Shown here: piece by piece, positions 24,080 through 42,177 of the stretch
Numbering within the stretch: position 1 is the stretch's first letter
Layout of the letters: the number at the start of each line of letters is the position of its first letter
NCBI GenBank assembly: GCA_945892985.1
Contig: CAMDDU010000023.1
Location: 2,003-66,002 of the forward strand
Length of the DNA: 64,000 bases
Source of the DNA: Bordetella parapertussis
GTDB taxonomy: Bacteria > Pseudomonadota > Gammaproteobacteria > Burkholderiales > SG8-39
Reading direction: 5' to 3'
Program-made: the position numbers and the translations under genes
Notes under the pieces: model-generated
Databases searched by the model: none
Seen by the model: only the letters and a program-made list of their open reading frames with translations
What the model was told of the DNA's origin: nothing

Positions 24080-24326
24080 TGAGCCTCCTATGGCATTTTG
24101 ATGTTGCGGGATTCCGGCAGCGCGTGAAATGCGTGCGACGGGTGCGCAATTATGCGCCATGCCGGCCGCAAGGGCATGGTTGAGCATCGAATCAACATGC
24201 ACGCAGGGCGGCTGCGCCATGGGCTTGAGAAAATCACCGGCCGCCGGAGCCTAATTCTCCTAAAATGACAGCCTTGAAATTCTCAGACCGGCGATGCCCG
24301 CCAAGGTGTCGCGCGCGCACGTTCCC

Positions 24327-25976
24327 ATGTCCGCACAATCCCCGGTAGATTCCCCATTGTTGAGTGCGGCGGTCATCGTTGTCGGTGCCGGCCCGGTCGG
24401 CCTGACGCTTGCCAATGTGCTGGGCCAGGCGGGCATTCACACTATCGTCATTGACCGTGAGGAGGGCACCGTCGCCGAGGCGCGTGCGGTGTCTATAGAC
24501 GACGAGTCGCTGCGCTCCATGCAGGCCATCGGCCTGGGGCCGGAGATACTCAAGGATGTGGTGCCCGGTTACGGCAGTCATTACTACACCGGGCCGCGCG
24601 GCCGCCAGTTCGCCATGGTCGAGCCGACGGTCAGCGACTACGGCTTTCCGCGGCGCAACGCCTTTCGTCAGCCCTTGTTCGAGGCCTCGCTGTTGCACGG
24701 TTTGCTGCGCTTTCCCTGCGTGCGTGTTTTGTTCGGGCATACGCTCGAGACGATCGCCCAGGACGCCGGTGGTGTGATTGCCGGCGTCACGGCGCCCGAT
24801 GGAACAAGCCTGCGCATTGGCGCGCACTGGCTCGCCGCCTGCGACGGTGGCCGCAGCACAGTGCGCAAGCTGCTTGGCGTGGAAATGGCCGGTTCGAGTT
24901 TCCGCGCGCGTTGGCTGGTGCTGGACACCGAAAACGACAATGACAGCTACCGCCATTCGCGCGTGTACTGCAATGCCGCGCGCGCGGTGCTCGATATTCC
25001 CGGGCCGCACCATACGCGCCGCTTCGAGTTTTTGCTCAAGGAGGGCGAGGACGAAGAGGCGATCATGGCGCCCGATTGCGTGCGTGAACTGCTGCGTCCC
25101 TACCGCGGCGAGCAAGCCACCAACATCGTGCGCAAGATCGTCTATACCTTTCATGCGCGCATGGCGGAAAAATGGCGCATCGGCCGCGTCTTTCTTGCCG
25201 GTGATGCCGCCCACCTCACCCCGCCCTATGCGGGGCAGGGCCTGAACAGCGGCGTGCGCGATGCGCATAACCTTGGCTGGAAGCTTGCGGCCGCGTGTCG
25301 CGGACTGCTTGGCGACAAGGCCCTCGACTCCTACGAGTCCGAACGCCGCGACCACGCCTGGTCGCTGATTCAACTCGCGCTCAATCTGGGTGTGGTGATG
25401 GCGCCGAAAAACCGCCTGCATGCGGCCGCCGTGGTGTGGTTTTTTACGTTGGTGGGCTTGATTCCGCCGTTGCGCGATTATTTTTTGCAGATGCGCTTCA
25501 AGCCGAAACCACGGTTTGAGCAAGGCCTGATCCTTGCTGATGCGGCTGCGGGCAAGGCCTCTTTGGTCGGGCGCATGCTGCCCCAGCCCATGGTGTGCGG
25601 CGCCGACGGCCGCAGCCAGTTGCTTGACGAGTTCATCGGCGCGGGTTTTGCGATCATTGCCATCGGGACGGCCGGTGAGGCGGCGCTGGCGGCCCTGGTT
25701 GATCCCCTGTGGATCCGCCTGGGCGTCCGGCGCATCGTCATCGTCGAAGCCGGTGAAATTTCAGGCGGGATGGTTGCAAACAATGCGCCCGCGACCGTCG
25801 ACTGCCAGCGCGTTGTTGATAGCGCCGGCGCGATGGCCGGCGTGCGCGCCGCCGCAGGCGGGCGCCTGATCCTCGTGCGTCCCGACCGCTATGTCGCCGG
25901 TGTTTTTGAGGCTGCCGATGAGGCGGCCTTTGCCCTCCGCTTCCGGCGCCTGCTCGATGGCAGCGCCACAGTTTGA
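24327..25976 (+). CDS. MhpA-like FAD-dependent aromatic monooxygenase
   Basis: GAGPVG, CDGGRS, LAGDAAH..PP.AGQGLNSGVRDA and C-terminal LVRPDRYV. Confidence 0.9.
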   Translation: MSAQSPVDSPLLSAAVIVVGAGPVGLTLANVLGQAGIHTIVIDREEGTVAEARAVSIDDESLRSMQAIGLGPEILKDVVPGYGSHYYTGPRGRQFAMVEPTVSDYGFPRRNAFRQPLFEASLLHGLLRFPCVRVLFGHTLETIAQDAGGVIAGVTAPDGTSLRIGAHWLAACDGGRSTVRKLLGVEMAGSSFRARWLVLDTENDNDSYRHSRVYCNAARAVLDIPGPHHTRRFEFLLKEGEDEEAIMAPDCVRELLRPYRGEQATNIVRKIVYTFHARMAEKWRIGRVFLAGDAAHLTPPYAGQGLNSGVRDAHNLGWKLAAACRGLLGDKALDSYESERRDHAWSLIQLALNLGVVMAPKNRLHAAAVVWFFTLVGLIPPLRDYFLQMRFKPKPRFEQGLILADAAAGKASLVGRMLPQPMVCGADGRSQLLDEFIGAGFAIIAIGTAGEAALAALVDPLWIRLGVRRIVIVEAGEISGGMVANNAPATVDCQRVVDSAGAMAGVRAAAGGRLILVRPDRYVAGVFEAADEAAFALRFRRLLDGSATV

Positions 25977-26878
25977 AACAGCCGAAAGCCACGATCATGT
26001 CCCGACTGCAGACTTCCACTCCGGCGCGCCTTCACCACCTGCATCTGACCAGCGAGGATCCGAAAGCCCTTGCGCGTTTTTATGTCGAGCTGATGGACCT
26101 TACCCCGACTGAAATTGAGGGCGGCGCGATCTTGCTGCGGGGCGCTCTGCGCAGCCTTCAGGTGAGCCGTGGGCCGTCGCGCGCGCTGGCCTGGAGCGCC
26201 TACGCCCTTGCCGACGATGCCGCCCTGGCCCGGCTGCGTGCGCGGCTCGCGGCGGAAGGTTTCGGTGCAAGGGACATGCACAGCATGCAGCTTATTAAGG
26301 CCCCGCTTTTTTGTGATGGTGCGTTTGTCGTCGCCGACCCGCAGGGCAGGCGCGTGGTGTTCGGCGTCCCGGCCGACGATAGCGCCAGCCCTGTGCGCGG
26401 CGATGCGCGCCGAGATGCGCGCCCTGCGCGCATGCAGCACGTGGTGTTCCAGACCACGGAGCTGGACGCCATGGTGGCGTTTTACTCGGGCAGGCTTGGC
26501 TTCACGGTTTCGGACCGCGTGGTGGAGGAGGATGGCAGCCTCGCCGTGTGTTTCATGCGCTCGGATGACGAGCACCATAGCGTGGCCTTTTTCCGCGGCG
26601 CGCGCAACGAGCTCGACCATCATTGCTATGAGACCAGCGGCTGGATGGACATACGCGACTGGGGTGATCGATTCGCCAGGGTTCGCATTCCGATATTTTT
26701 CGGCCCCGGCCGCCACGGCCCCGGTGACAACCTGTTCTTCATGGTCAATGATCCGGATGGCAATAAGGTGGAGTTGTCCGCCGAGATCGAGATCGTCAAG
26801 GCCGACAAACCGGCAGGAGTCTGGCCGCAAAGCGAATACACACTCAATAGCTGGGGCCGTGCCTGGAAGCGCAGCTAA
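25973..26878 (+). CDS. VOC-family extradiol (catechol 2,3-type) dioxygenase
   Basis: QHVV, EHHSVAF, LDHHCYE and GPGRHGPGDN.F....DPDGNKVE. Alternative start ATG 25997. Confidence 0.85.
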   Translation: MKQPKATIMSRLQTSTPARLHHLHLTSEDPKALARFYVELMDLTPTEIEGGAILLRGALRSLQVSRGPSRALAWSAYALADDAALARLRARLAAEGFGARDMHSMQLIKAPLFCDGAFVVADPQGRRVVFGVPADDSASPVRGDARRDARPARMQHVVFQTTELDAMVAFYSGRLGFTVSDRVVEEDGSLAVCFMRSDDEHHSVAFFRGARNELDHHCYETSGWMDIRDWGDRFARVRIPIFFGPGRHGPGDNLFFMVNDPDGNKVELSAEIEIVKADKPAGVWPQSEYTLNSWGRAWKRS

Positions 26879-28462: not shown

Positions 28463-28578
28463 TCCGCTACTGCTGGAGGGCGTCTGTGACATGCGTCTGG
28501 TCGCGTAACCTGACTTATCGAGGAGGAAGTCATACGCCGCAACAGCATTGACAGTTTTTGCAATCGAGCAAGAAAAAG

Positions 28579-28734
28579 GGGGTAAATGCGGTCGTCGATT
28601 CGATATTGAATCACACCAACCTCTCGCCCGACATCGTCGCTGCCATTCTTGCCGATGCGCTCCCCAACGGTGCGACACTCTTTGACATCGGGGAGGGTCC
28701 GCTGACGTTATGGGCGGAACAGTCGCGCCATTAG
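28579..28734 (+). pseudogene. C-terminal remnant of a small protein that accompanies serine-recombinase integrative elements
   Basis: Reads SILNHTNLSPDIVAAILADALPNGATLFDIGEGPLTLWAEQ, matching the LAPDIVxAIL...LFD...WxEQ pattern. No start codon. Confidence 0.6.
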
Positions 28735-28934
28735 CCTCGCTGAAGTTTTGATTCCGCGGCGGCTTAAATTATGAATTCGCTACCCGCTGGTCGAGAGCAG
28801 CATATCGCTGCGCTTTTCCAGTCTTGAAATGGCGTCCTGGCTAACCGCCCAAGGCCGTGGCCAAATCGTCCAGATTCCGGTGGCGGCCTGAATTGGCAAT
28901 TCGCCACCCACAGGGCGACGAGGGTGGAATTGAA

Positions 28935-29957
<1,023 letters not shown>

Positions 29958-30149
29958 TTATCGCAAAGACAGAGTTTGCCGCAAAAGGGCGATTAGTGTC
30001 AGCGTTCAGGGCGACGGCAGCGGACAGATAGGAGGCCCCCCCGTCGAAGCGGGCGAAGACCGAAGCCGAGTCAACGCCTGCCAGGATATGACATCACCGT
30101 GAGCCTTCAACCGTGTTCTTGTTCAAAGCACTGAAATCGTGTCACCCCT

Positions 30150-30420
30150 AGGGACGATCACGGTACGGGCAGTCTGATCTGTAGTCCGAGATCGAGAGAT
30201 AGACTAAGGCAGGACTGACGGGATGTACTGCCTTGTATCAATGTCCAGCCTGTCGAGTACATCCGACCCCAGATGTTCGACGGGTGCGCCGGCCCCGCGG
30301 GTGAGTTTCATGAAAAATATTTTTCTTAGACGGCTCGCGCATATCAAGCGCGATGCTCTGCTTGTTCCGATTGAGGCCAAAAATATCGGACTGTCCGCAC
30401 GCTGCTCCCTTCGCGGCCCC
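30150..30420 (-). pseudogene. CaiB/BaiF (family III CoA-transferase) remnant
   Basis: FGLNRNKQSIALDMREP, then after frameshifts VLDRLDI...SPALVYLSISDY...PYRDRP. Confidence 0.75.
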
Positions 30421-30650
30421 GGGGCCCTTAGACTGGCGCCGCGATTTTTTTGATTTCGGCATCAATACTGTGCGTGAAAAATATCCTGGCAAGGTCCGCC
30501 GAAAAGCTTTGCCGTGGCCTCACCCTCGAGTTCGCAGGTTCCTGAAACTTGTTTTTTGTTCAGTTGCTTGGAGTTTATTTTTAAAAGAGTTTTCAGATAA
30601 TCGTCTACGGTCGAAACCGTTTTGATGCTGCAATGCAGAAGGACATTCAC

Positions 30651-30691
30651 TTGACTTGTAAATTAATAGGGATATTGTTAAGTAACAATAT
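30651..30691 (+). promoter_or_regulatory. Sigma70-like promoter overlapped by operator ATATTGTTA-AG-TAACAATAT
   Basis: TTGACT at 30651, TATTGT at 30673, perfect 9-bp inverted repeat at 30672-30691, upstream of the island operon that encodes PadR. Confidence 0.6.
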
Positions 30692-30713
30692 ATAGCGCAC
30701 TGGAGGCTTACCG

Positions 30714-31574
30714 ATGACTGTCAAAATGAATGCCAAGCAAGAGGCCGCGGCGATGGAACCGCCGTCTTGGAAAGAGCGCATGGCCATAGCTTTCGCCCGA
30801 GATATTAACGATGGCGAGCGAATTATTTCTGGCGCGCACACAGAGATTTCTTTTGCGGCGACACTCCTTGCTCAAAAGGTGCACGCGCCAAATATCAAAC
30901 TTCAACTTGGGGGAACATGTTTTCTTGTGAATGTTTCTGACGTGCCAGTTTTTCTCCCCAAAACCTCAACAGAGTATCGGATGATTCGCTGGGCCGAGAT
31001 TGCCTATGATCATATGGAAACATTCATGTACTTCGGCGCGCCTTTGGGGCGCGAGTACTACAAGGGTGGAAGGCCCCAGACAAACAAGTACTTCGTCGCT
31101 GACAAGTTCTTCGCTGGTGGAATTCAGGTGGATGGGAACGGAAATACGAACATGATTGGACTGAAAGGTTCTGGAGATAAAAAGTATAGTTTTCGAGGAC
31201 CAGGTTCTATCGGAATCACTGATATCGTAACAGTAGCCACACCCTATATCTTCGTGACTCACCACGATCGCCGAACCTTGGTCGAAAAGGTTGACTACAT
31301 CTCGATGTTGGGCCCGAAAGGATGGCGTGAGAATAAATATCCGGGCAAGGGTCCTAAGTGGATTATTACGCCGCGGTGCATTTTCACCTTCAACCAGGAC
31401 GGCCATGCTCAACTGGCGGGCGTCTTTGCCGACACGACAGAAGCTTGGGTTCGCGAAAACACTGGATTTGATTTTGAGTTGTCCCCGGATTTCAGCGAAA
31501 TAGTCGAACCCACCTTTGAAGAGCTGTCAATTCTCAGAAACGAAATCGATCGCGACGGCGTGTTGCGTCACTAA
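30714..31574 (+). CDS. Class I CoA-transferase-fold beta subunit (GctB/IpdB-like)
   Basis: MAIAFARDINDGE, HAPN, GGIQVDGNGNTN, LVEKVDYIS and VRENTGF. Confidence 0.88.
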   Translation: MTVKMNAKQEAAAMEPPSWKERMAIAFARDINDGERIISGAHTEISFAATLLAQKVHAPNIKLQLGGTCFLVNVSDVPVFLPKTSTEYRMIRWAEIAYDHMETFMYFGAPLGREYYKGGRPQTNKYFVADKFFAGGIQVDGNGNTNMIGLKGSGDKKYSFRGPGSIGITDIVTVATPYIFVTHHDRRTLVEKVDYISMLGPKGWRENKYPGKGPKWIITPRCIFTFNQDGHAQLAGVFADTTEAWVRENTGFDFELSPDFSEIVEPTFEELSILRNEIDRDGVLRH

Positions 31575-31589
31575 TCAAGGAAGTGCGAA

Positions 31590-32756
31590 ATGGCTAGCGT
31601 GCATATCGCAGGTGTTGGATCGACTTCATTCGGTAGCCATCCGTCACAATCGCTACAGAATCTTGCGGTTATCGCGGCAAAGGCCGCGATTGCGGATTCC
31701 AACATTCCGATCGAACGGATTGGCGCCGTATTTGTCGGCAACTTCGTAGGTGGCATCATGATGGGGCAGGAACTGTTGGGGCCCATCGTTGCCGCTAATC
31801 TAGGTATTTCTTCTGTGCCTGCTTTGAAGATCGAGGCTGCCTGCGCCTCAAGTAGCGCCGCGGTTCACCTCGCCCATGAACTTATCCGCGGTGAAACTCA
31901 CGATGCAATAGTGGTTGTGGGTGTGGAACGCCTTACGGGCGTGCCACGAGAAGCGTTTACCTCGGCAATGACTGCCGCGATTGATCAGCAACAAGAGGGT
32001 ATTCACGGACTGACCTTTCCTGGATTCTGGGGGCTTGTGATGAATCGCCACATGCACCTATACGGGACCACCAGAGCGCAGGTTGGATCCGTTACCGTAA
32101 AAAACAGACAGTTTGGAATCACCAATCCGCTCGCGCAGTTTCGGAAATCCATTACGCTTGATGAAGTAGTCAATTCGGCGCTTATTGCTGATCCAGTTCG
32201 AAAATTCGATTGCTGTCCGTCTACAGACGGTGCAGCTGCCGTTGTGCTCACCTCCGAAGCTCTTGCGCGTCGTTACAGATCACCTTCAATCAAAGTGGCC
32301 GCATCGATACTGGTAAGTGCCCCAGTTCGGATAACGGACTATGCCGAATTAACTATCCATGATGGCACGGTTGAAGCAGCGCGCCGCGCTTATGAGAGAG
32401 CTGGGATAGGGCCAGCAGACGTCGATGTGGCCGAATTGCACGATTGCTTCTCAATTGCGGAGATAGTAGACAGTGAGGATTTGGGGTTCTTCGCGAAGGG
32501 TGATGGTGGTCCTGGCGTAGTAGCCGCGACGTCCGGATCGCCCATGGCTCGTGTGGTGATTAACCCCAGCGGTGGGCTTTTGTCAAAGGGGCACCCCACA
32601 GGTGCCACGGGTTGTGGCCAATTGTACGAAATCGTCATGCAACTTCGTGATATTCACCCGAACCAAGTTCCCGGTGCGCGGATTGGTCTGACACACAACG
32701 GTGGGGGAACTGCGGCAGCCGTAACTGTTCATATCCTCGAGGCAGTTCAGCAATGA
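31590..32756 (+). CDS. Thiolase family protein (SCP2/lipid-transfer-protein type)
   Basis: EAACASSS, DGAAAVV, ELHDCFSIAE and NPSGGLLSKGHPTGATG. Confidence 0.92.
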   Translation: MASVHIAGVGSTSFGSHPSQSLQNLAVIAAKAAIADSNIPIERIGAVFVGNFVGGIMMGQELLGPIVAANLGISSVPALKIEAACASSSAAVHLAHELIRGETHDAIVVVGVERLTGVPREAFTSAMTAAIDQQQEGIHGLTFPGFWGLVMNRHMHLYGTTRAQVGSVTVKNRQFGITNPLAQFRKSITLDEVVNSALIADPVRKFDCCPSTDGAAAVVLTSEALARRYRSPSIKVAASILVSAPVRITDYAELTIHDGTVEAARRAYERAGIGPADVDVAELHDCFSIAEIVDSEDLGFFAKGDGGPGVVAATSGSPMARVVINPSGGLLSKGHPTGATGCGQLYEIVMQLRDIHPNQVPGARIGLTHNGGGTAAAVTVHILEAVQQ

Positions 32757-32989
32757 TTGACAACGGAATGATAGAAGGCAGGGTGGTTAGCCATACCGTG
32801 ATACGCATAGCCGGCAAGCTTCACATGGATCGAGTGCCTTTCGTTTTATTGCTGACAGCGACAAAAGATGGAACGCACTTGCTAGGTCATTTTGATGGGA
32901 TCGAGCCGCCTCCTATCGGAACAGCGGTCACCGCTCACCTAAATACCGGAAGCACCCTCATTTTCACTACAGCCAAGGAGCAGTTATGA
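32753..32989 (+). CDS. Short DUF35-type OB-fold protein (no Zn ribbon)
   Basis: G.VVSHTVI...PFVLLL...G..LLG......IGTAV pattern; ATGA-coupled to the thiolase. Confidence 0.72.
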   Translation: MIDNGMIEGRVVSHTVIRIAGKLHMDRVPFVLLLTATKDGTHLLGHFDGIEPPPIGTAVTAHLNTGSTLIFTTAKEQL

Positions 32990-33918
32990 AACTAGATCCA
33001 ATCACGCGCGACGCTCGTCCCGAGCGCAAGAAGGTACTGATGAGTGAAGAAGAGGCCATCGAGCTGATTCATGACGGCGAAACCGTAATCGTGGGTGGAT
33101 TTGGTACTGTCAATCATCCAATGCCGATTATCCGTGGATTGATACGGAGAAAGGTCAAAAATCTGACGGTAATCGGAGCAGCCACTGCTGGTCTCGAGAT
33201 CGATATGTTAATCGGCGCCGGGTGCGTAAAAAAGGTAATTGCGCCTTATGTCGGAGCCGAACTTTATGCTCCGATCGGACACTGCTATAGACGTGCGGCT
33301 GAACGTGGCGAAATTGAAGTGTACGAAACAACGGAATACCTTCTCTATTCACAACTCGATGCGGCGGCCCGCGGGCTAGGTTTTCTTCCTTGGCGTGGGG
33401 GAGTTGGTACGGATTTACCCAAACTAAACCCCGATTACGTCCCCTTTAATGATCCGATCAACGGTGAGCCCTACCTTGCGGCGCCCGCCCTTCATGCTCA
33501 TTGGGCAATCATCCATGTTGGGCAAGCTGATGAATTTGGAAACGGCCAGCACGGTGGAGCCCGCTTTGGCGATCGCTTGTTATCGAGGGCAGCCGAGCGC
33601 GTAATACTCACCGCGGAGCGGATCGTGCCAAACAGTGAAATTCGTAAAGACCCGTGGGCTACGTCAATCGCATATGCGGACGCTGTTGTCGAGGCTCCTT
33701 ACGGATGCCATCCATACGCCAGTCATGGGTTTTATGTGGAAGATGAAGAGGCCATTCGTGCTTATGTGCAAGCATCGATTAGCTACCGCAAGGATGAGAT
33801 GAAAGAGTGGAATGCGTACCTTGACGAATGGGTAACGGGCCCGAAGTCCCAGATGGAATACCTTGAGAAAATTTCAGCGGGTAGGTTGGCCCAATTGCAA
33901 AACGCGGTTCATGCCTAA
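32986..33918 (+). CDS. Class I CoA-transferase-fold alpha subunit (GctA/IpdA-like)
   Basis: IHDGETVIVGGF, IHVGQADEFGN, ILTAERIV and VVEAPYGCHP. Confidence 0.9.
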   Translation: MKLDPITRDARPERKKVLMSEEEAIELIHDGETVIVGGFGTVNHPMPIIRGLIRRKVKNLTVIGAATAGLEIDMLIGAGCVKKVIAPYVGAELYAPIGHCYRRAAERGEIEVYETTEYLLYSQLDAAARGLGFLPWRGGVGTDLPKLNPDYVPFNDPINGEPYLAAPALHAHWAIIHVGQADEFGNGQHGGARFGDRLLSRAAERVILTAERIVPNSEIRKDPWATSIAYADAVVEAPYGCHPYASHGFYVEDEEAIRAYVQASISYRKDEMKEWNAYLDEWVTGPKSQMEYLEKISAGRLAQLQNAVHA

Positions 33919-34660
33919 GAAACGCGAAGAGCGTCCTGTTCGAAGCGTTGCTCAGGCTTCCAGTAATGGATTACGCGAAGCGCTCTTGGGGCTGTTGGCA
34001 ATTCGGCCTATGTCTGGTTATGACTTAACGCGCTCCTATATCCGAGCGCTGCAGCAAATATGGTATGCCCCGCAGGGGCAGGTATATCCGACCTTACGAA
34101 AAATGCATGCCGAGGGGCTACTTGCGGTGGGGATTGAGGTTCAGCACGATCGGCCAAATCGCAAAATTTATAGCCTCACGGAGAACGGTCGCCAAAATCT
34201 GATCGAATGGCTATCGCATCCGGCCACGCTGCCGCGTATGCACCATGAATTTATCCATAAGCTCTTCCTTTTAAATCAGGTTGACTTAGCGAAGCGGCGT
34301 GAATTAGTAAAATCTTATGCAGAGCGGAGCCACAAGTGGTGTGATGAATTGCGCTGTGTTGAAAAAAAACTTAGCTCCGCACTCAATGGTGAGTACGGAG
34401 AAAGCGCTTGGTATCAACTGCTTGCTCTCCAGCATCTCATTCGAATTGTCGAATGTGATGCGAAATCTGCGCAATTGATCGCGACCCAGCTTGGCAATCG
34501 GTCAAAAGTGAAAGCGGGTAAAAAGTCTGTGCGTAAGCGCGAAGACCGGACTGATACAACTGCATTCGCCGGGTTTTCGTTGTCACCAATTCAGGGTGTG
34601 GTTGAGACTTTGATGGACTGGGATCGATTGCCACAGAGACAAAAGGGCAGTCGGTGTTGA
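33911..34660 (+). CDS. PadR family transcriptional regulator
   Basis: LLGLLAIRPMSGYDL, W.A..GQVYPTL and RPNRKIYSLTENG. Confidence 0.9.
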   Translation: MPKKREERPVRSVAQASSNGLREALLGLLAIRPMSGYDLTRSYIRALQQIWYAPQGQVYPTLRKMHAEGLLAVGIEVQHDRPNRKIYSLTENGRQNLIEWLSHPATLPRMHHEFIHKLFLLNQVDLAKRRELVKSYAERSHKWCDELRCVEKKLSSALNGEYGESAWYQLLALQHLIRIVECDAKSAQLIATQLGNRSKVKAGKKSVRKREDRTDTTAFAGFSLSPIQGVVETLMDWDRLPQRQKGSRC

Positions 34661-34661
34661 T

Positions 34662-36548
34662 ATGAGTACCCAACATCACCGTGCCAGGGCGAGAGAGCTT
34701 TACGGAAAAAGTATCCCGCAGCTCTTTCTTGAGAAGGCAGCCAGCTTCAGCGGTGAAATTGCGTATCGCCACAAAAAAAACGGCATTTATCGCGAAGTGA
34801 CCTGGGGCTCCTATCGGAAGCGCGTAGAAGCATTTTGTCTGGGCTTGATTGATCTTGGGATGGTCCCCGGCGATCGAGTCGCCTTCATGGGGGATACGTA
34901 TCCTGAATACTTTATTGGTGACCTGGCAGTCCTTTGTGGTGGTGGTGTCACTTACGGAATTTATGCAACCTGTTCTGAGATCGAGACTGAGTATCAGGTA
35001 GCTCATGCCGAAGCGAGTTTCTTCGTTGCTGAGAATCAAGAATACGTTGACAAAATCATACATCGCAAGGCGCATTGCCCAGCGCTTAAGTACATAATAG
35101 TTGCAGACATGAGTTCGATGTTTGGATATTCGGACTCGAAAATTATTTCCTTTGCGCAGATTGAGGAACGCGGTTGCGAGATCGCCAAGTACAGCAGTGA
35201 AGTTTTTCTCGATCGCGCATCCGCTGTGCGGGCCGATGCACTGGCTATCTTAGTCTATACGTCGGGTACGACTGGCGCTCCAAAGGCGGCAATGCACAGC
35301 CACCGAGATGTTATCGTGGGGCAGTCGCATCCTTATCTTGAAGGGTTTCCCGAACTCGATCGGGGTAAGCACCGGCTAGTTACGCATCTGCCACTTGCCC
35401 ATCTAGTCGAGCGGTCGATTCCACTCTACTTGCCATTGATCGCCGATCTGGTCGTACATTTTGGCGAGGACGTAGAGAGCCTGCCGACCACGCTTTATGA
35501 GGTAACACCGACATTTTTTCACGCCGTCCCTCGCATCTGGGAAAAAATGGCATGTCGATTCCTGGTCGGAATAGAGCGTAGCACGCCTCTCAAGCGTCTT
35601 ATTTTCGAGGCAGCAATGAAGGTAGGGAAACGCTACATTCATCGCCTTTGGAAGGGCGAGCGTATCCACCTTCATCTCCGACTAAGCTATGCGCTCGCTC
35701 GGCTCTTGGTCTTTCGTCCAATGTTAATGAAGGCGGGTCTCTCGAGTTTGCAGGGAGGGCTTACTGCTGGAGCCCCAATTTCCGGACGTATCCAGGAACT
35801 TTGGCATATTTGGGGGGTTAACCTCCGGAATATCTATGGCATAACCGAAGGCACCGTCATTTCGTGCCAAATAGGTAACTTTCCACGCCCCGGTGACGCA
35901 GGCGCAATAGTCTATCCAAAGGAAGTCCGACTTGCAGCTGACGGTGAAGTTATGGTTCGCGGGAACGGTATATTTTTAGGCTACTGGAAGGATGAGGCGG
36001 CGTCAGCTGCGGCGCATGACGATGGTTGGTTTAAAACTGGAGACATTGCGCGTTGGACCGAGTCATCAGGGGAAAAGGTTCTAACACTCGTCGATCGCAA
36101 GAAGGATCTGATGATTACGAAAGGTGGGAAAAATATCGCCCCAAGTGAAATTGAGTCGCTTCTGAAAACAAGTCATTACATTAGTGAAGCGATTTTGTTT
36201 GCGGATGACCGCAAATATCCGACGGCTTTGATCGAGATCGACTTTGATACCGTTGCGGAGTGGGCGCGAAAGAATTCTGTTCTCTATAGCGGGTACAGTT
36301 GCCTAGCCACTTCTAAGCAGGTAGAGCGGCTAATTGCTGGAGAGATCGATCACGCAAACGGACAACTTGCACGAGTTGAGCAAGTAAAAAAATTCCAAAT
36401 ATTGCCCAAGGAACTTGATCCGGAAGAAGGCGGAACGACGCCCACGCGAAAAATAAAAAGGAAGCAAATCTACGAGATGTTTAGAGACCGCGTGGAGATG
36501 ATGTACGAGGACAAGGAGCAAGAACGGTTACTAGGTGAGGGTACATAA
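34662..36548 (+). CDS. Long-chain acyl-CoA synthetase (AMP-binding)
   Basis: YTSGTTGAPK, YGITE, FKTGDI, GGKNIAP and TPTRKIKR. Confidence 0.92.
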   Translation: MSTQHHRARARELYGKSIPQLFLEKAASFSGEIAYRHKKNGIYREVTWGSYRKRVEAFCLGLIDLGMVPGDRVAFMGDTYPEYFIGDLAVLCGGGVTYGIYATCSEIETEYQVAHAEASFFVAENQEYVDKIIHRKAHCPALKYIIVADMSSMFGYSDSKIISFAQIEERGCEIAKYSSEVFLDRASAVRADALAILVYTSGTTGAPKAAMHSHRDVIVGQSHPYLEGFPELDRGKHRLVTHLPLAHLVERSIPLYLPLIADLVVHFGEDVESLPTTLYEVTPTFFHAVPRIWEKMACRFLVGIERSTPLKRLIFEAAMKVGKRYIHRLWKGERIHLHLRLSYALARLLVFRPMLMKAGLSSLQGGLTAGAPISGRIQELWHIWGVNLRNIYGITEGTVISCQIGNFPRPGDAGAIVYPKEVRLAADGEVMVRGNGIFLGYWKDEAASAAAHDDGWFKTGDIARWTESSGEKVLTLVDRKKDLMITKGGKNIAPSEIESLLKTSHYISEAILFADDRKYPTALIEIDFDTVAEWARKNSVLYSGYSCLATSKQVERLIAGEIDHANGQLARVEQVKKFQILPKELDPEEGGTTPTRKIKRKQIYEMFRDRVEMMYEDKEQERLLGEGT

Positions 36549-36575
36549 ACGAAGTACGACTGAGGAGGATATACA

Positions 36576-37763
36576 ATGAACTTCGAACTAAAACGAAAGG
36601 CCGTCACTGCCGGCATAGTGATGGGTGTGATGTTGTCTTCACCCGTGCGGGCGGATTACCAGATTGGCTTTATGACTGATCTTTCTGGAGCGTTGTCGGA
36701 TGCGTATACGCCGATCTGGGAAGGATTCGACCTCTATGTCAAGGCACTCAATGCCAAGGGAGGCATTGACGGTGAAAAAATTGTCCTTCACACGGAGGAC
36801 GATGGCCTAAATCTCCAAAAGGCAATTTCCCTTACGAAGAAGCTAGCGCTTCAACAGAAGGTTATCGGAATTTTCGGTCTTAGCGTTAGTAGCATACACG
36901 GGCCTGTCTTTGAAGAGTTACGACGACTCAAGGTGCCCGCCGTTACTGCGTTTAGTGCTACTAGCGATAGTCTGGCACCAGCGAAACCCTTCTCTTTTAG
37001 CACCGGTTCACTGTTTCAGATCGCTGGGGAGGCGATTGGCGAACTTACGCCAAAGCTCGGTGTTAAAGGAAAGGTCGTAGGCATGACCATTGATACGGTC
37101 GGCGGTCGAGCAGCCTTGCGACACAATAAACTCGCGGTCGAGCGCGTAGGATATGGCTGGGATGAAGTCGCGTTTCCAATTCAGTCGGTCGATTTTACGC
37201 CGTTCGCACAAGCCGCTGTTGCGAAGAACCCAGCAATCGTTGTCGGCCATTACGGGACAGCGCAGAACCTTGGCATTATCCCGGCCTTGCGGCGAAGTGG
37301 ATTTGCGGGCCCCTATTTAATTGCAAACTACGGTGTAACTGAAACCGCGATTGAGGGGGCAGCTAAAGCAGCGGGGTCTGGGGAGAACATCTACGTCGTA
37401 TCGCGATATGCACCGCCCCAGGAAAATATCCCGGCCGTGGAGCAAATCCGAGCTGCCGCGAAGGCGCATAACTTGAAAAGGAGCCTTACGCAGGTACACG
37501 TTGAGGGATGGGTTCTAGGAATGGTCATGCATGCGGCTGTTACGAAGTGTGGCAAGGGCTGTACTGCGGAGAAGTTAAACGAGACGCTAGAGAATCTGAA
37601 CGTCAATACTGGCGGCCTAACGGGTGGTCCGATCGTATTCACAAAGGACAATCATTATGGGCCGTCATTTTGGCGGCTTTACAAATGGAACAACGCGAGC
37701 CGTAAGCTGGACTCCGTGAGTGAATGGGTCAGGCGTGACGCTATCGAATTTGGTAGTCCGTAA
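36576..37763 (+). CDS. Liv-type ABC substrate-binding protein
   Basis: Signal peptide, IGFMTDLSG and NAKGGIDG. Confidence 0.88.
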   Translation: MNFELKRKAVTAGIVMGVMLSSPVRADYQIGFMTDLSGALSDAYTPIWEGFDLYVKALNAKGGIDGEKIVLHTEDDGLNLQKAISLTKKLALQQKVIGIFGLSVSSIHGPVFEELRRLKVPAVTAFSATSDSLAPAKPFSFSTGSLFQIAGEAIGELTPKLGVKGKVVGMTIDTVGGRAALRHNKLAVERVGYGWDEVAFPIQSVDFTPFAQAAVAKNPAIVVGHYGTAQNLGIIPALRRSGFAGPYLIANYGVTETAIEGAAKAAGSGENIYVVSRYAPPQENIPAVEQIRAAAKAHNLKRSLTQVHVEGWVLGMVMHAAVTKCGKGCTAEKLNETLENLNVNTGGLTGGPIVFTKDNHYGPSFWRLYKWNNASRKLDSVSEWVRRDAIEFGSP

Positions 37764-37772
37764 TACATTACC

Positions 37773-37808
37773 AATAGGTGCGACATCGCGCCGATGATCG
37801 CACCTATT
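37773..37808 (+). terminator. Hairpin after the SBP gene
   Basis: AATAGGTGCGA...TCGCACCTATT inverted repeat. Confidence 0.6.
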
Positions 37809-37843
37809 CTCACCGGATTTTTTAAAATGTTGATAGCGTTTCT

Positions 37844-38713
37844 ATGATGCAATCGATCCTTACGATCGTCGTGCTAACGAGCATCTACGCAATTTTGGCA
37901 GGTGGCATCGTGGTTCTGTATCGGGGGACGCGCGTGCTAAATCTCGCACACGGGGAGCTAGCAATCCTGCTTGGCTATTTATTTGCCACAGCGGGCATGC
38001 AGGTCACGGGTTCGATACTGGGTGGCATGGCCGTAGTCATGGTTTTTAGCGCGATATTTGGAGCGGGTATTTACTGGCTGCTGATGCGACATTTGATTGC
38101 GCAACCCTTTTATGTGGCGATTCTAGCGACCATCGGAATAGCGATTTTAGCGAAGGCGTCAATCGTCCTGCTCTGGGGTGGCCGCGCCGTAAATATCGAG
38201 TTGGGTGCAAATACGGTGCTATACCCGTATTCCACGGGAGGATGGTTTTCTTATCTGGACGCAATCACGATAGCGACTGCAGTTATTTTCTTCATTCTGT
38301 TGTATTACGCGCTCACGTCGACTCGACTCGGAATTCAGTTTCGTGCCGTGGCTGAGAATCCTCTGCTTGCGAGTCAGCGAGGCGTAAACGTGAATACCAT
38401 AATGATGGTGGCATGGATTGTTGCACTATTTGCAGCGTCGATTGCAGGGGTCCTATATGGATCCAGAAGCGTTCTTAGTCTCCAGGCTGTAGTGATTGGA
38501 ATTGGCGGACTAACTGCGGCGTTAGTCGGAGGACTTGATAGTCTTCGCGGCGCAATTGCAGGGGCATTGTTGGTGGCAACGGTTGAGTATGCGACGGTGC
38601 GTTTGATAGACCCAATTTTGAGTCAGGCGATTCCATTTGTCTTGCTATTGACCGTGATGATGTGGCGGCCATGGGGGATTTTCGGAACCCGAGAGGAAAT
38701 CCAGAGGGTGTGA
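37844..38713 (+). CDS. ABC permease (LivH-like)
   Basis: VLNLAHG, LVGGLDS and RPWGIFG. Confidence 0.9.
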   Translation: MMQSILTIVVLTSIYAILAGGIVVLYRGTRVLNLAHGELAILLGYLFATAGMQVTGSILGGMAVVMVFSAIFGAGIYWLLMRHLIAQPFYVAILATIGIAILAKASIVLLWGGRAVNIELGANTVLYPYSTGGWFSYLDAITIATAVIFFILLYYALTSTRLGIQFRAVAENPLLASQRGVNVNTIMMVAWIVALFAASIAGVLYGSRSVLSLQAVVIGIGGLTAALVGGLDSLRGAIAGALLVATVEYATVRLIDPILSQAIPFVLLLTVMMWRPWGIFGTREEIQRV

Positions 38714-38715
38714 TT

Positions 38716-39792
38716 ATGTTTAACGAAGCCCCTAATTTGGTTACCTCACAGCAGCAACGGGGATTTATCCTTAAACGGAGATATCAACGGGTGTTACTCG
38801 CCGTCGTCGTAGTGATTGCGGCAATCTTGCCTTTTTCAATATCGCAATATCATATTCATCTTTTCAATCTTGCGCTCATTGCAAGTATCGGTGCTCTCTC
38901 ACTCAATTTGCTTACGGGCTTGACCGGCCAGGTATCTTTGGGGCATGCCGCTTTTTTGGCTATCGGCGCTTTTTCTGCGGTAATTGTAGAGCGTATGACG
39001 TCGGTGGGCATAACGCTCGCGTTGCCTGTTGCAGCAATTGCAGGGGGGGTGATCGGATTGCTCGTCGGAATTCCAGCAACGCGTTTTCGCGGTATGTATC
39101 TCGCAGTTACGACGCTAGCAATGCATTACGCCACCGTCTTCGTGGCGAAATGGTATCAGATGAAACTTGGCGTAAGTGCCAGTGAGGGGATTGTCATCCC
39201 AAGTCCGCAGATGTTTGGCTACACGCTTTCGGATGACCGACATTGGTATTTTGTATTGGCCCTGATGGTCGGAATAGTAATGTGGCTTTTTCTTAATATT
39301 CTTCGATCACGAACTGGCAGAGCTTGGATAGCGATACGTGATCGGGACATCTCAGCGGAGGCCCTCGGAATCGATGTATTTAAGTTCAAGCTTTCCGCCT
39401 TTGTTATTAGTTCTAGCATCGCTAGCTTTGCGGGTGCTTTGCTGGCCTATTACACAAAGAGCGTTAGTTCTGACACTTTCACATTCGATATAGCCGTCGC
39501 GTATCTTGCAATGATTATCATTGGAGGTATGGGTTCGCCTCTTGGCGCGGTGTTAGGTGCGTTCTTTGTGACGTTTCTTCCCTATATCGTCGAGGCAGCA
39601 TTTGATTTTGTTCCGGTCGCGTGGAAAGGGGGAGGGGCCCTCTTTGGGTACCAGCTTGGATCCGTCGGGCTTTGTATTTTAGTATTTGTTATATTCGAGC
39701 CTCGTGGACTCGTTGAGATTTGGCGACGTGTGGAAACCTACTTCGAACGCTGGCCGTTCAGATATCGAGCCCTTGAACCGAATCAGAAGTGA
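38716..39792 (+). CDS. ABC permease (LivM-like)
   Basis: LNLLTGLTGQVSLGHAAF, RGMYLAVTTLA and IIGGMGS. Confidence 0.9.
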   Translation: MFNEAPNLVTSQQQRGFILKRRYQRVLLAVVVVIAAILPFSISQYHIHLFNLALIASIGALSLNLLTGLTGQVSLGHAAFLAIGAFSAVIVERMTSVGITLALPVAAIAGGVIGLLVGIPATRFRGMYLAVTTLAMHYATVFVAKWYQMKLGVSASEGIVIPSPQMFGYTLSDDRHWYFVLALMVGIVMWLFLNILRSRTGRAWIAIRDRDISAEALGIDVFKFKLSAFVISSSIASFAGALLAYYTKSVSSDTFTFDIAVAYLAMIIIGGMGSPLGAVLGAFFVTFLPYIVEAAFDFVPVAWKGGGALFGYQLGSVGLCILVFVIFEPRGLVEIWRRVETYFERWPFRYRALEPNQK

Positions 39793-39802
39793 AGAGACGA
39801 AA

Positions 39803-40597
39803 TTGGCGAATATTCTTGAGGTATCCCAGTTGGAGGTTGTCTACCATAAGGTAGCGACTGCTGTTCAGGGTGTATCAATATCGGTTCCGGAGCATGCCAT
39901 CGTCGCGATTGTTGGAACGAATGGTGCTGGAAAGACGACGACGTTGCGCGCGATCTCCGGATTGCTCCCGGCAGAAGATGTCGCGATCTCAAATGGAGAC
40001 GTGTTTTTTCGTGGAAGTTCTCTATTGAACATGCCGCCGCACGAGATATCTTCCCGCGGGATAGCAATCGTACCGGAGCGCCATAAGGTGTTCGAGACGC
40101 TAACGGTTGCCGAGAACCTCGCGATGGTTGCACCTAACCAAAACAAGGGCGTGAGCATAGAGGAAATTTTCCAGTATTTCCCGAAATTGAGCGAGCGTCA
40201 CAACCAAATTGCTGGATTTATGAGCGGTGGCGAAAAGCAGATGCTCGCAATAGCAATGGCTCTTCTCAACCACCCGCACTTGCTGTTGATCGATGAGCTT
40301 TCACTGGGTTTGGCGCCTGTCGTTGCTATTGATTTGATGCAGATTCTAAAGAAGTTGAACGAAGATTTAGGTGTGGCCATCTTACTTGTTGAGCAAAACG
40401 CGGTTGCGGCGCTTGAGGTCGCCAGTTATGCCTACGTAATGGAGAACGGACGGATTGTTCACAGCGGGCTGTCTTCGGAGCTTTCTAGTCACGCTGATGT
40501 TCAGGAGTTTTACCTAGGGAGCGGTGCAACTGAAAGTGATCCCAAGAGCTATCGTAACGTCAAGCAATATAGTCGCAAGCGCCGTTGGGGAGGGTAG
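39803..40597 (+). CDS. ABC ATP-binding protein (LivF-like)
   Basis: GTNGAGKTT, MSGGEKQM and DELSLGLAP. TTG start inferred. Confidence 0.9.
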   Translation: MANILEVSQLEVVYHKVATAVQGVSISVPEHAIVAIVGTNGAGKTTTLRAISGLLPAEDVAISNGDVFFRGSSLLNMPPHEISSRGIAIVPERHKVFETLTVAENLAMVAPNQNKGVSIEEIFQYFPKLSERHNQIAGFMSGGEKQMLAIAMALLNHPHLLLIDELSLGLAPVVAIDLMQILKKLNEDLGVAILLVEQNAVAALEVASYAYVMENGRIVHSGLSSELSSHADVQEFYLGSGATESDPKSYRNVKQYSRKRRWGG

Positions 40598-40600
40598 GGG

Positions 40601-41377
40601 ATGCCTCCGCTTCTTCGCGTTGACGAACTTGGGCTGTCCTTTGGGGGGCTCATCGCGATTCATCAATTGAGTTTTTCGCTTGGCCACGGCGAACTCCTTG
40701 CGATCGTCGGGCCGAATGGTGCTGGTAAGACGGCGTTGCTCAATTGCATTAACGGTGTCCATCGCGCGAGTTCGGGGAGTATTCATTTTTGCGAACGCGA
40801 CATTACTGGCGCACCCTTACGAGACATGGCAAGCCTAGGTATTAGTCGTGCATTTCAGCATATCGAGCTCTTTAGTCATCTGACAGTAGTTGAAAATATT
40901 CTCCTTGGTCGGCATTGCCGAATGCAGACAGGGATTCTCGGCAATATGATTTATTGGAAATCGACACGGCAAGAGGAGAGTCGGGAACGCGAACGTTCTG
41001 AAGAAATTATTGAGTACTTTGAATTGAATCATTTTCGCGATACATTGATTGGCAATCTTCCTTATGGCATCCAAAAGCTAGTTGGTGTCGCAAGGGCGAT
41101 TGCATCCGAGCCCAAGTTGTTGCTTTTGGATGAGCCGTCGACTGGGCTCGTTCGTGAAGAAAAGGAGCATCTTGCACGTTTCCTACTGCGTTTACGGAAT
41201 GATCATGCACCGGGAATTATTTGGATAGAACATGATATGCAAATGGTGGCGGATCTTGCTGATCGTGTAATTGTTTTAAGTTACGGACAAAAAATTGCTG
41301 AAGGTTCGCCTCAAGAGATTCGTTGCAATCCCGAAGTTATAAAATCCTATCTAGGGTCCGGGCTGTCATCTAAATAG
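40601..41377 (+). CDS. ABC ATP-binding protein (LivG-like)
   Basis: GPNGAGKT, LPYGIQK, LLLDEP and IEHDM. Confidence 0.9.
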   Translation: MPPLLRVDELGLSFGGLIAIHQLSFSLGHGELLAIVGPNGAGKTALLNCINGVHRASSGSIHFCERDITGAPLRDMASLGISRAFQHIELFSHLTVVENILLGRHCRMQTGILGNMIYWKSTRQEESRERERSEEIIEYFELNHFRDTLIGNLPYGIQKLVGVARAIASEPKLLLLDEPSTGLVREEKEHLARFLLRLRNDHAPGIIWIEHDMQMVADLADRVIVLSYGQKIAEGSPQEIRCNPEVIKSYLGSGLSSK

Positions 41378-41397
41378 TTGAACAACTGCGCTTCGAC

Positions 41398-41421
41398 GTG
41401 CATAGCGCCGGAAGCAGGATT
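41398..41421 (+). repeat. 24-bp direct repeat, right copy
   Basis: Identical to 28439-28462; 21 bp after the last island gene. Confidence 0.9.
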
Positions 41422-41476
41422 CCGGCAGCGGTTACAGGACGTTCATGAGATGCGCTTGGGGCCTGAGCAATTTGGG

Positions 41477-41884
41477 CTAGGCTGCCTTGATTTCTTCCAG
41501 AAGCTCAGGATGCCGGTCCAATACCTTGAGTAGTTTTAGGAGCGCCAATGGTGGCTTCGTTTTGCCATTTTCGTATCGAGAGAACGCATTGACGCCGCCG
41601 CCGAATATTTCTGCGGCCTCGCGCTGATCGAGGTGGAGTTTTTTCCGCACGCCGACAATGAATGACGGATCAACGATCGCGACATTCACTTGCTTGTTGA
41701 ATTCGAGCATCAACGTACTGGTGCGCACAGACTCGCCCCTGTCAAGAACAGCCTCCGCACACGCTGGGCAATAGTCGCCGGTTACCGCCGCAATTGTGGT
41801 TTTTTCGCCCTTGTAGGTGTAGGGCATGTCACGCGTGTCATGCACCAGTTTCGCTGCGCCGCAATTTGGGCATTTCATGGTCAC
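41477..41884 (-). CDS. mqsA: MqsA antitoxin (Zn finger plus HTH)
   Basis: CPNCG...CPAC and LDQREAAEIFGGGVNAFSRYENGK. Confidence 0.93.
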   Translation of the reverse strand: MTMKCPNCGAAKLVHDTRDMPYTYKGEKTTIAAVTGDYCPACAEAVLDRGESVRTSTLMLEFNKQVNVAIVDPSFIVGVRKKLHLDQREAAEIFGGGVNAFSRYENGKTKPPLALLKLLKVLDRHPELLEEIKAA

Positions 41885-42177
41885 AACTCCCTGAACGAAA
41901 CGATGAGAACATCATCGATAACAGTCAACTTCAGCTACACCCCGCCCGCATCTGTGGTCGGCCGATACACGTCCTGCCCAATCCGGGGATCGGCGTGGGT
42001 CGTCATGCTCTTGTAGAAGTCCTTCGGCGTGAGGGCCATGATGACCGCGACAATTTCCTCAAAATTGAACCCCATGGCCGCCGCGCCAACGAGCGCCGAT
42101 TGGGTCGAGCGCACCTTGCCGGCTTCGATTAGCGTCCTAACGACTGCCAGCTTTCAGTGAGGAGTAGCTTTTTCCAC
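41881..42177 (-). pseudogene. mqsR: MqsR toxin with two in-frame stops
   Basis: MEKATPH*KLAVV...DFYKSMTTHAD...QDVYRP...V*LKLTVIDDVLIVSFREL; 99 codons, TGA at codon 8 and TAG at codon 81. Confidence 0.9.

Follow-up and report, generated by a model that had tools for sequence, protein, structure and literature searches.

A Glutamate-Less CoA-Transferase-Fold Pair Encoded around a Thiolase and a Mini-DUF35 Protein: A Candidate Thiolase-Coupled C–C-Cleaving System

What reaction should be expected of a class-I coenzyme A (CoA)-transferase-fold pair whose β subunit carries no catalytic glutamate and whose genes flank those of a thiolase and a DUF35 protein? The question is raised by an operon in a 64,000-nucleotide (nt) stretch of contig CAMDDU010000023.1 (assembly GCA_945892985.1), referred to throughout as the window. 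A sequence-only reading of this DNA had proposed that the four proteins form a new C–C-cleaving acyl-CoA system. Our analysis leads, with a probability of roughly 0.5, to an assignment in which the α/β pair is an IpdAB-like, non-transferase enzyme that cleaves a C–C bond, and in which the thiolase removes its 3-oxoacyl-CoA product. Such a reaction best accounts for the residue signatures of the pair, the ligase encoded in the same operon, and the thiolase/DUF35 pair that always stands nearby. Judged by sequence comparison, the family is an uncharacterized variant of the Glu-less CoA-transferase-fold enzymes, with a catalytic signature nearest that of IpdAB and an overall sequence nearest that of GctAB.

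Operon layout and residue signatures

The four genes head a 10.7-kb operon, an unbroken series of genes on the + strand, in which the β-to-α block is followed by genes for a PadR regulator, an acyl-CoA ligase, and a Liv-type ATP-binding cassette (ABC) importer. The features are as follows.

30672..30691, no strand: candidate operator, inverted repeat ATATTGTTA-AG-TAACAATAT, perfect 9+9 nt, 23 nt upstream of the β start; putative function
30714..31574, + strand: β subunit, GctB-like class-I CoA-transferase fold, 286 amino acids (aa) (PF01144, 27.8 bits)
31590..32756, + strand: SCP2/archaeal-type thiolase, 388 aa (PF22691, E 1e-35; PF00108, E 1e-24; PRK06064, 385.7 bits)
32753..32989, + strand: mini-DUF35, 78 aa, oligonucleotide/oligosaccharide-binding (OB) fold without zinc ribbon (PF01796, 27.8 bits; cutoff 27.1)
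32986..33918, + strand: α subunit, GctA/IpdA-like, 310 aa, Glu117 at the IpdA Glu105 column (PF01144, E 9e-30)
33911..34660, + strand: PadR-family regulator, likely start ATG 33911 (PF03551, E 7e-15)
34662..36548, + strand: adenosine monophosphate (AMP)-forming acyl-CoA ligase, FadD11-like, 628 aa (PF00501, E 5e-49; NF038343, 288 bits, under its cutoff)
36576..37763, + strand: periplasmic solute-binding protein of a Liv-type ABC importer (PF13458, E 1e-48)
37844-38713 and ~38662-39792 (second start uncertain), + strand: two Liv-type permease genes (PF02653, E 1e-23 and 3e-43)
~39686-40597 (start uncertain) and 40601-41377, + strand: two ABC ATPase genes (PF00005, E 2e-25 and 8e-30; PF12399)

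Coordinates and Pfam assignments agree with the order β, thiolase, mini-DUF35, α given in the sequence-only reading. The translational coupling that it claimed for the last three genes is borne out by an ATGA overlap at the thiolase/DUF35 junction and another at the DUF35/α junction. The β and thiolase genes are separated by 15 nt containing a Shine-Dalgarno-like AAGGAAG, and GGAGG lies 8-9 nt ahead of the β ATG. The probable PadR start overlaps the α stop by 8 nt, and the genes from thiolase through PadR are thus an overlapping series.

The β subunit aligns with GctB (1poi_B) over residues 20-280 (E 1.5e-14, phmmer), and a profile of the β family reaches E 5e-34 against the same chain with the register unchanged. 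In this register, Gly66 lies on the catalytic Glu54 of GctB, with IIVESG over LQLGGT (motif HAPNIKLQLGGT). Three independent alignments, namely phmmer against 1poi_B, the family profile against 1poi_B, and a hidden Markov model (HMM) alignment with Glu-bearing representatives (FEAG/YESG), place Gly66 in the Glu54 column. The absence of the canonical glutamate noted earlier is therefore upheld, and a check for a glutamate at the GctB E54 position by alignment with GctAB returns Gly66. Both subunits are homologous in fold to the Gct-type class-I CoA-transferases (PF01144); the catalytic β glutamate of that class is the feature they lack. A passage of a study in mBio (2017, PMC5380842) reports that IpdB of Rhodococcus jostii RHA1 has Gly57 at the GctB-Glu site and that CoA-transferase activity was not seen with IpdAB.

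The α subunit matches GctA (1poi_A, E 1.4e-34) and IpdA (6co6_A, E 4.9e-28) in HMMER searches. Its ETTEY motif, part of YETTEYLL, aligns with EMDEG in 6co6_A and with EMDAG in the deposited variant 6coj_A, so Glu117 corresponds to the residue altered in 6coj_A. We take this residue to be IpdA Glu105, which the sequence-only reading gives as catalytic. The same column holds Gln in GctA and Gly in AibA. The earlier alignment of YETTEYLL with the IpdA catalytic glutamate, made by eye, thus reappears in the HMMER alignment to EMDEG, and the residue is present in all 41 relatives that cover the site.

The thiolase is catalytically intact by alignment, with nucleophilic Cys85, the proton donor Cys286 of HDCF, and His335 of GHP, and it therefore has all three motifs of the SCP2-type thiolases. 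According to a passage of the Sal paper (PMC12329534), HDCF is the SCP2 thiolase motif and thiolase-fold aldolases have a Gly in place of the nucleophile. Because the nucleophilic Cys and HDCF are both kept, the window protein is assigned as a true thiolase; an Ltp2/Sal-type aldolase is ruled out by the nucleophilic Cys. Among solved structures it comes closest to acetyl-CoA acetyltransferases (7yvy_A, E 2.5e-67; archaeal 6esq_A, E 1.3e-66), with SCP2 thiolases and BbsB next. In alignments with full-length DUF35 proteins, the 78-aa protein covers their OB half. Measured against the DUF35 families (PF01796/PF12172), it has the C-terminal OB fold and lacks the N-terminal rubredoxin-like zinc ribbon. 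Its AlphaFold2 (AF2) model has a predicted local distance difference test (pLDDT) score of 84.4, and the Foldseek matches ranked 1-10 are all DUF35 chains that partner thiolase-fold enzymes (6ok1_B, 9vbt_L, 7pxp_A, 9myr_B, 6esq_F, and others), with a TMq of 0.71 to 6esq_F. Catalytic residues, Pfam assignments, and Foldseek matches agree with the SCP2-type thiolase and DUF35 identities originally given.

Relatives, second gene sets, and the wider superfamily

Close relatives were gathered from genome and metagenome collections as 64 loci, not de-duplicated between the two sources. A first-set (set-1) β gene is present in 63 of them; the remaining locus, L129, was found through a set-2 β at 54% identity. 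KLQLGG is kept in 62/62 set-1 β sequences and ETTEY in 41/41 set-1 α sequences that cover the site, an invariance that excludes a chance origin for both motifs. In the set-1 thiolase (thiolase1), HDCF is found in 33/33 sequences and the nucleophilic Cys motif in 36/36. Identity to the window is 75-81% for β, 76-83% for α, and 66-74% for thiolase; the corresponding values are 43-55% for DUF35, 52-59% for PadR, 54-57% for the ligase, and 37-54% for the binding protein. Carriers at 75-83% α/β identity belong to Hyphomicrobiales and Thermoleophilaceae and include a betaproteobacterial metagenome-assembled genome (MAG). The 90%-identity cluster of the β protein bears the source name 'MAG: CoA-transferase [Betaproteobacteria bacterium]'.

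The synteny search gave a divided answer on the gene order. Where the gene after β is readable (55 of the 63 loci), it is a thiolase in 41, an α gene in 11, and a split β followed by α in 1, with nothing recognizable in the other 2. Because β and α are adjacent in 11/55 loci, the thiolase/DUF35 insert is not obligatory. All nine of these 11 loci with a readable upstream region carry another, second-set thiolase/DUF35 pair, and at least one thiolase/DUF35 pair stands next to the α/β genes in every related locus that is readable. In one related MAG (L007, 8855-10272), ~1.4 kb separates β from thiolase.

In 44 of the 63 loci, the neighbor of β on its upstream side is an SRPBCC gene, the first of a second, divergent operon. 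Its order is SRPBCC (Polyketide_cyc2), full-length DUF35, thiolase2, α2, β2, and aldehyde dehydrogenase, as exemplified by L002 (3900-7772, − strand) and repeated in most of L003-L012 and L082-L130; in the Thermoleophilaceae MAG L013, the second set lies downstream instead. The residue signatures recur in this set, with the α2 Glu kept in 33/33 sequences and the β2 Gly in 31/31, and its DUF35 proteins are full-length with the ribbon present. Thiolase2 (e.g., L002 5713-6894, − strand) keeps the nucleophilic Cys and the His, and HDAM replaces HDCF in 37/37 sequences. Lacking the proton-donor Cys of SCP2 thiolases, thiolase2 may carry out chemistry different from thiolysis. A TetR gene usually follows α in the relatives, PadR is found in some loci only, and a FabK-like gene (IpdC family) is adjacent in five related loci.

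Set 1 stands alone in the window and in L080, its twin at 97% identity; both are exceptional in this, and both have upstream a gene for a binding protein of a tripartite ATP-independent periplasmic (TRAP) transporter. Neither a second α/β/thiolase set nor the aldehyde dehydrogenase was found in the window's genome (94.65% complete) with α and β queries. The aldehyde dehydrogenase of the relatives suggests that one cleavage there releases an aldehyde, a step absent from the window's genome.

How unusual is a β subunit without the glutamate? A β profile search of 1.84 billion representatives returned 2955 β-like proteins at E ≤0.001, and the Glu54 column was surveyed in the best 150 of these 2955, of which 103 had an aligned residue. 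The residue is Gly in 46, Leu in 18, Ser in 13, and Glu in 6, so that 97/103 lack the glutamate in a sample biased by a profile that was built from Glu-less proteins. Loss of the β glutamate is the rule in the sampled superfamily, and the missing residue is not unusual. The combination of SGAHTEI and KLQLGG defines a narrow subfamily of 14 representatives, many of them fragments.

α/β pairs were also sampled within the same order as the window's genome. Alphas with a Glu at the IpdA column comprise the window family, two further groups, and steroid-type groups, and wherever their β was found it is Glu-less. The sole Glu-bearing β type (three same-order loci) is paired with an α without the Glu; one of the three loci, L053, comes from a genome flagged as unpublished (G205), and the statement holds on the other two. 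Several other Glu-less groups have a Cys at the α column. Among these same-order α homologues, no thiolase or DUF35 hit falls within ~1.5 kb at any of 29 loci, nor within ~8 kb of the three best matches (40-49% identity). Paralogues in Pseudolabrys-type MAGs, 30-40% identical, were rejected as members of the same system on the grounds of a GFO/IDH/MocA oxidoreductase context, no thiolase, and a Cys at the α column; their loci (L015 6947-9703 and L033 6958-9662) represent another uncharacterized Glu-less family. A complete same-order genome contains a canonical steroid C/D-ring-type cluster (L079; G154:C1:2850000-2868000) that was used as a natural IpdA reference. Its order is extradiol dioxygenase, α (IpdA/ScdL1-like), β (IpdB/ScdL2-like), crotonase, FabK-like reductase, crotonase, two acyl-CoA dehydrogenases, and thiolase, and its α has EIDEG at the Glu117 position and is 33% identical to the window α.

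Known systems, proposed reaction, and alternatives

IpdAB (Mycobacterium tuberculosis and R. jostii RHA1; 6co6/6co9/6coj/6con) is the COCHEA-CoA ring-C hydrolase of steroid catabolism and acts with the thiolase FadA6. The window pair resembles it in having a two-subunit class-I fold, a Glu-less β (Gly57 in RHA1 IpdB, as given in the mBio passage, and Gly66 here), and an α Glu in the same column. A further likeness is that the IpdAB product is passed to a thiolase. A passage of a Comamonas preprint (bioRxiv 10.1101/2021.06.08.447645), citing the 2018 PNAS paper, states that the ring-opened product of IpdAB is made only with FadA6 present; with such a dependence, close linkage to a thiolase would be expected to be selected for. 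The window pair differs in several respects. HMMER E-values to IpdAB are only ~5e-28 (α) and 0.085 (β), the identity to a betaproteobacterial IpdA-type α is 33%, the window order is β...α with genes between, and its thiolase is of the SCP2/archaeal type and accompanied by DUF35. None of the steroid C/D-ring context genes (IpdC/FabK-like reductase, EchA20-type crotonase, acyl-CoA dehydrogenases, KstR2) was found in the window operon, in keeping with the original remark that no other steroid genes are present. The family therefore combines the β and α residue signatures of IpdAB-type enzymes with neither closer orthology to IpdAB nor a steroid context.

Among solved structures, GctAB of Acidaminococcus fermentans (1poi) scores highest against both subunits, in alignments that cover almost all of each; it differs in GctB Glu54 versus Gly66 and in a GctA Gln versus Glu117. 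Bit scores are 123 (GctA) versus 102 (IpdA) for α and 57 (GctB) versus 15 (IpdB) for β. AibAB (5mzw and others), the 3-methylglutaconyl-CoA decarboxylase of Myxococcus xanthus, shares the fold and likewise has no β Glu. It differs in the AibA Gly at the α-Glu column, in the absence of a segment common to GctB and the window family, and in having no thiolase/DUF35 linkage. The family lacks the marks of the AibAB-type decarboxylases: the α column differs and isovaleryl-CoA pathway genes are not nearby.

A thiolase/DUF35 pair beside IpdAB-like genes has a precedent. In a figure legend of the review PMC6678751, the consecutive genes SEDNCHOL_10317-10321 of Sterolibacterium denitrificans are annotated as IpdA-like, IpdB-like, BbsA-like, SCPx-type thiolase, and IpdC-like, with the legend wording 'subunit of benzoylsuccinyl-CoA thiolase' (BbsA/DUF35-type) and 'propanoyl-CoA C-acyltransferase'. 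By annotation, then, the linkage of an SCPx-type thiolase and DUF35 with IpdAB-like genes already exists in a steroid degrader, and the partnership can no longer be called unprecedented, although no biochemical study of it was found. The Sterolibacterium genes differ in their order and in being surrounded by steroid-degradation genes for enoyl-CoA hydratase, acyl-CoA dehydrogenase, and IpdC-like proteins. The window thiolase and OB protein belong to the same families as the components of DUF35-scaffolded complexes (6esq, BbsAB 7pxp, Ltp2-ChsH2 6ok1, Sal-Shy 9myr, PhlABC 5m3k). In the window, however, the DUF35 protein has no zinc ribbon, and the would-be third component is a CoA-transferase-fold pair instead of an HMGCS/KAS-III-like or MaoC protein. 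Full-text literature searches found no description of the window family and, among the papers listed, none with both 'glutaconate CoA-transferase' and 'DUF35'.

From the gene content, residue signatures, conservation, and synteny, we infer a chemistry, a catabolic direction, a substrate class (a cyclic or branched β-keto or enoyl acyl-CoA), and perhaps a physical complex. An organic acid would be imported by the Liv-type ABC system and activated by the FadD-like ligase to a CoA thioester, which would be handed to the α/β pair. Glu117 of the α subunit would serve as the general base for water addition and C–C bond breakage, in a retro-aldol or retro-Claisen type of ring or branch opening, affording a 3-oxoacyl-CoA. 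The SCP2-type thiolase, stabilized by the OB-only DUF35 protein, would cleave this product at once to acetyl-CoA and a shorter acyl-CoA, and thiolysis would thereby pull an otherwise unfavorable equilibrium. As the operon encodes neither a dehydrogenase nor a hydratase, the imported acid would have to carry the reactive functionality already, or other loci would supply the corresponding steps. Comparison of the binding protein and the ligase with solved structures gave no clue to the substrate, and for the binding protein no relative was informative.

The most familiar alternative is an ordinary β-ketoacid module of the Ato/Sco/PcaIJ-PcaF type, in which a working CoA-transferase with a relocated nucleophile (e.g., β Glu44 or α Glu117) precedes the thiolase. 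A class-I CoA-transferase is classically paired with a thiolase, as in the ato, sco, and pca operons; among solved homologues, GctAB comes closest; and the β subunit has a second glutamate, Glu44 in SGAHTEI, that is family-specific and conserved. We regard such a module as unlikely all the same. The canonical Glu is replaced by Gly throughout the set-1 β sequences, Glu44 is missing from close relatives, P0152 and P0155 among them, and of the two characterized Glu-less relatives, IpdAB and AibAB, neither is known to be a transferase, IpdAB having shown no such activity in the mBio passage cited above. Moreover, a CoA-transferase is unnecessary given the dedicated AMP-forming ligase in the same operon, which would make it redundant. 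Somewhat more doubtful is a reaction of the AibAB kind, in which the pair would work as a decarboxylase, or as some other lyase or an isomerase, on a CoA ester of the glutaconyl or β-keto-dicarboxyl type, with the thiolase acting before or after it. AibB is the second-best solved homologue of β (E 2e-7 alone, 1e-21 with the profile) and likewise Glu-less, but AibA has Gly at the α-Glu column, and genes for HMG-CoA synthase, dehydratase, and reductase were not found alongside the operon in the window or the relatives.

The archaeal match of the thiolase and the 6esq_F match of the mini-DUF35 model could also be taken to indicate a condensing, biosynthetic channel like the archaeal thiolase/HMG-CoA-synthase/DUF35 assembly, 6esq_A being an acetoacetyl-CoA thiolase; the thiolase would then make a 3-oxoacyl-CoA, and the α/β pair would pull the reaction by hydrolysis or conversion. 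The operon is laid out for catabolism, however, with its importer, ligase, and ligand-type repressor; the relatives add an aldehyde dehydrogenase, and no downstream biosynthetic genes are present, which renders this channel improbable. Finally, loss of the catalytic glutamate is what would be expected if the α/β pair were a catalytically dead scaffold or a substrate-presenting pseudoenzyme for the thiolase. This explanation is very hard to reconcile with 75-83% identity across Hyphomicrobiales, Thermoleophilaceae, and the betaproteobacterial MAG, with the invariant polar motifs, and with the persistence of β and α in the 11 loci that have no thiolase1/DUF35 between them, and we give it little credence.

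Several observations weigh against the IpdAB-like assignment itself. Glu44 of β could be a relocated nucleophile. The active-site register of β is set by alignment, since the AF2 model (mean pLDDT 71) falls below 50 at residues 67-77 and 84-127, which cover the loop after Gly66. Both subunits score nearer to GctAB than to IpdAB, and the shared α glutamate could be convergent or incidental. The operon contains no dehydrogenase or hydratase gene that would supply a β-keto or enoyl substrate, and without the second set and the aldehyde dehydrogenase, the pathway in the window's genome may be partial. The thiolase1/DUF35 pair is missing between β and α in 11 of the 55 readable loci, by which the idea of a four-protein α/β/thiolase/DUF35 complex is weakened. 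All members of the family come from uncultured organisms. The earlier interpretation survives in part: the Glu-less pair with an IpdA-type glutamate is linked to an intact thiolase/DUF35 pair, with IpdAB-like cleavage as the best-fitting reaction, while its novelty is weakened and both subunits lie nearer GctAB than IpdAB or AibAB by sequence.

Genomic setting and significance

The operon has a G+C content of 50.7%, compared with ~62% on either flank, and lies in a low-G+C island (window 28500-42000, 0.50-0.56) that also holds a TRAP DctP-type binding-protein gene (28935-29933, − strand). Relatives carry these genes at a G+C content that matches their hosts. An α with >50% identity occurs only in the window's genome among 401 sampled genomes of the same order, a tally that includes two genomes flagged as unpublished (G205 and G294). 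Taken together, the low G+C of the operon, the host-matched G+C of its relatives, and the uniqueness of α among the 401 genomes indicate that the block is very probably a horizontally acquired island. No tRNA genes were found in the window. Directly downstream of the island lies an MqsA-type antitoxin gene (PF15731, E 1.6e-62; 41477-41884, − strand), and ~2 kb beyond it a Cas1 gene (PF01867, E 1.7e-70; 43604-44593, − strand). In the high-G+C host region upstream of the island, a gene for an FAD-dependent aromatic-ring hydroxylase (PF01494) precedes one of the extradiol-dioxygenase type, with a glyoxalase fold (24294-26878, + strand).

In four lake/freshwater metatranscriptome libraries, parts of window 30884-41397 are matched by short contigs with an identity of 95% or higher. 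Some span gene junctions: β/thiolase (31351-31618), DUF35/α (e.g., 32924-33183), α/PadR (33838-34177), and PadR/ligase (34529-34781). These contigs are a weak hint that the operon genes are expressed; they cannot prove a single transcript, and DNA carry-over is possible. Single-nucleotide polymorphism patterns in the matching contigs point to closely related strains. The inverted repeat upstream of β was rejected as a conserved operator because its core is not kept in relatives: the core is absent upstream of β in 78 of 79 loci, the sole match being the window's own copy, and ~0.5 chance matches per window are expected at ≤2 mismatches.

To our knowledge, Glu-less CoA-transferase-fold pairs have only two known functions, those of IpdAB and AibAB. 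A bolder extension of the IpdAB-like assignment, which we advance tentatively, is that the window pair represents a third functional type on this fold, a thiolase-coupled hydratase/retro-aldolase (or hydrolase) for the opening of a cyclic or branched acyl-CoA of non-steroid type, with physical channeling of the product to the thiolase via the ribbon-less DUF35 protein; together with the paralogous set, it might then belong to a widespread uncharacterized route of catabolism in uncultured bacteria of soil and freshwater. The window family offers a sharply defined, expressible case of an IpdA-type glutamate outside steroid catabolism, for which the co-encoded ligase, importer, regulator, and thiolase can help to narrow down the substrate. 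If the proposal is true, thiolase-pulled C–C cleavage would extend to new substrates, and a name could be put to a pathway encountered on many contigs from soil metagenomes.

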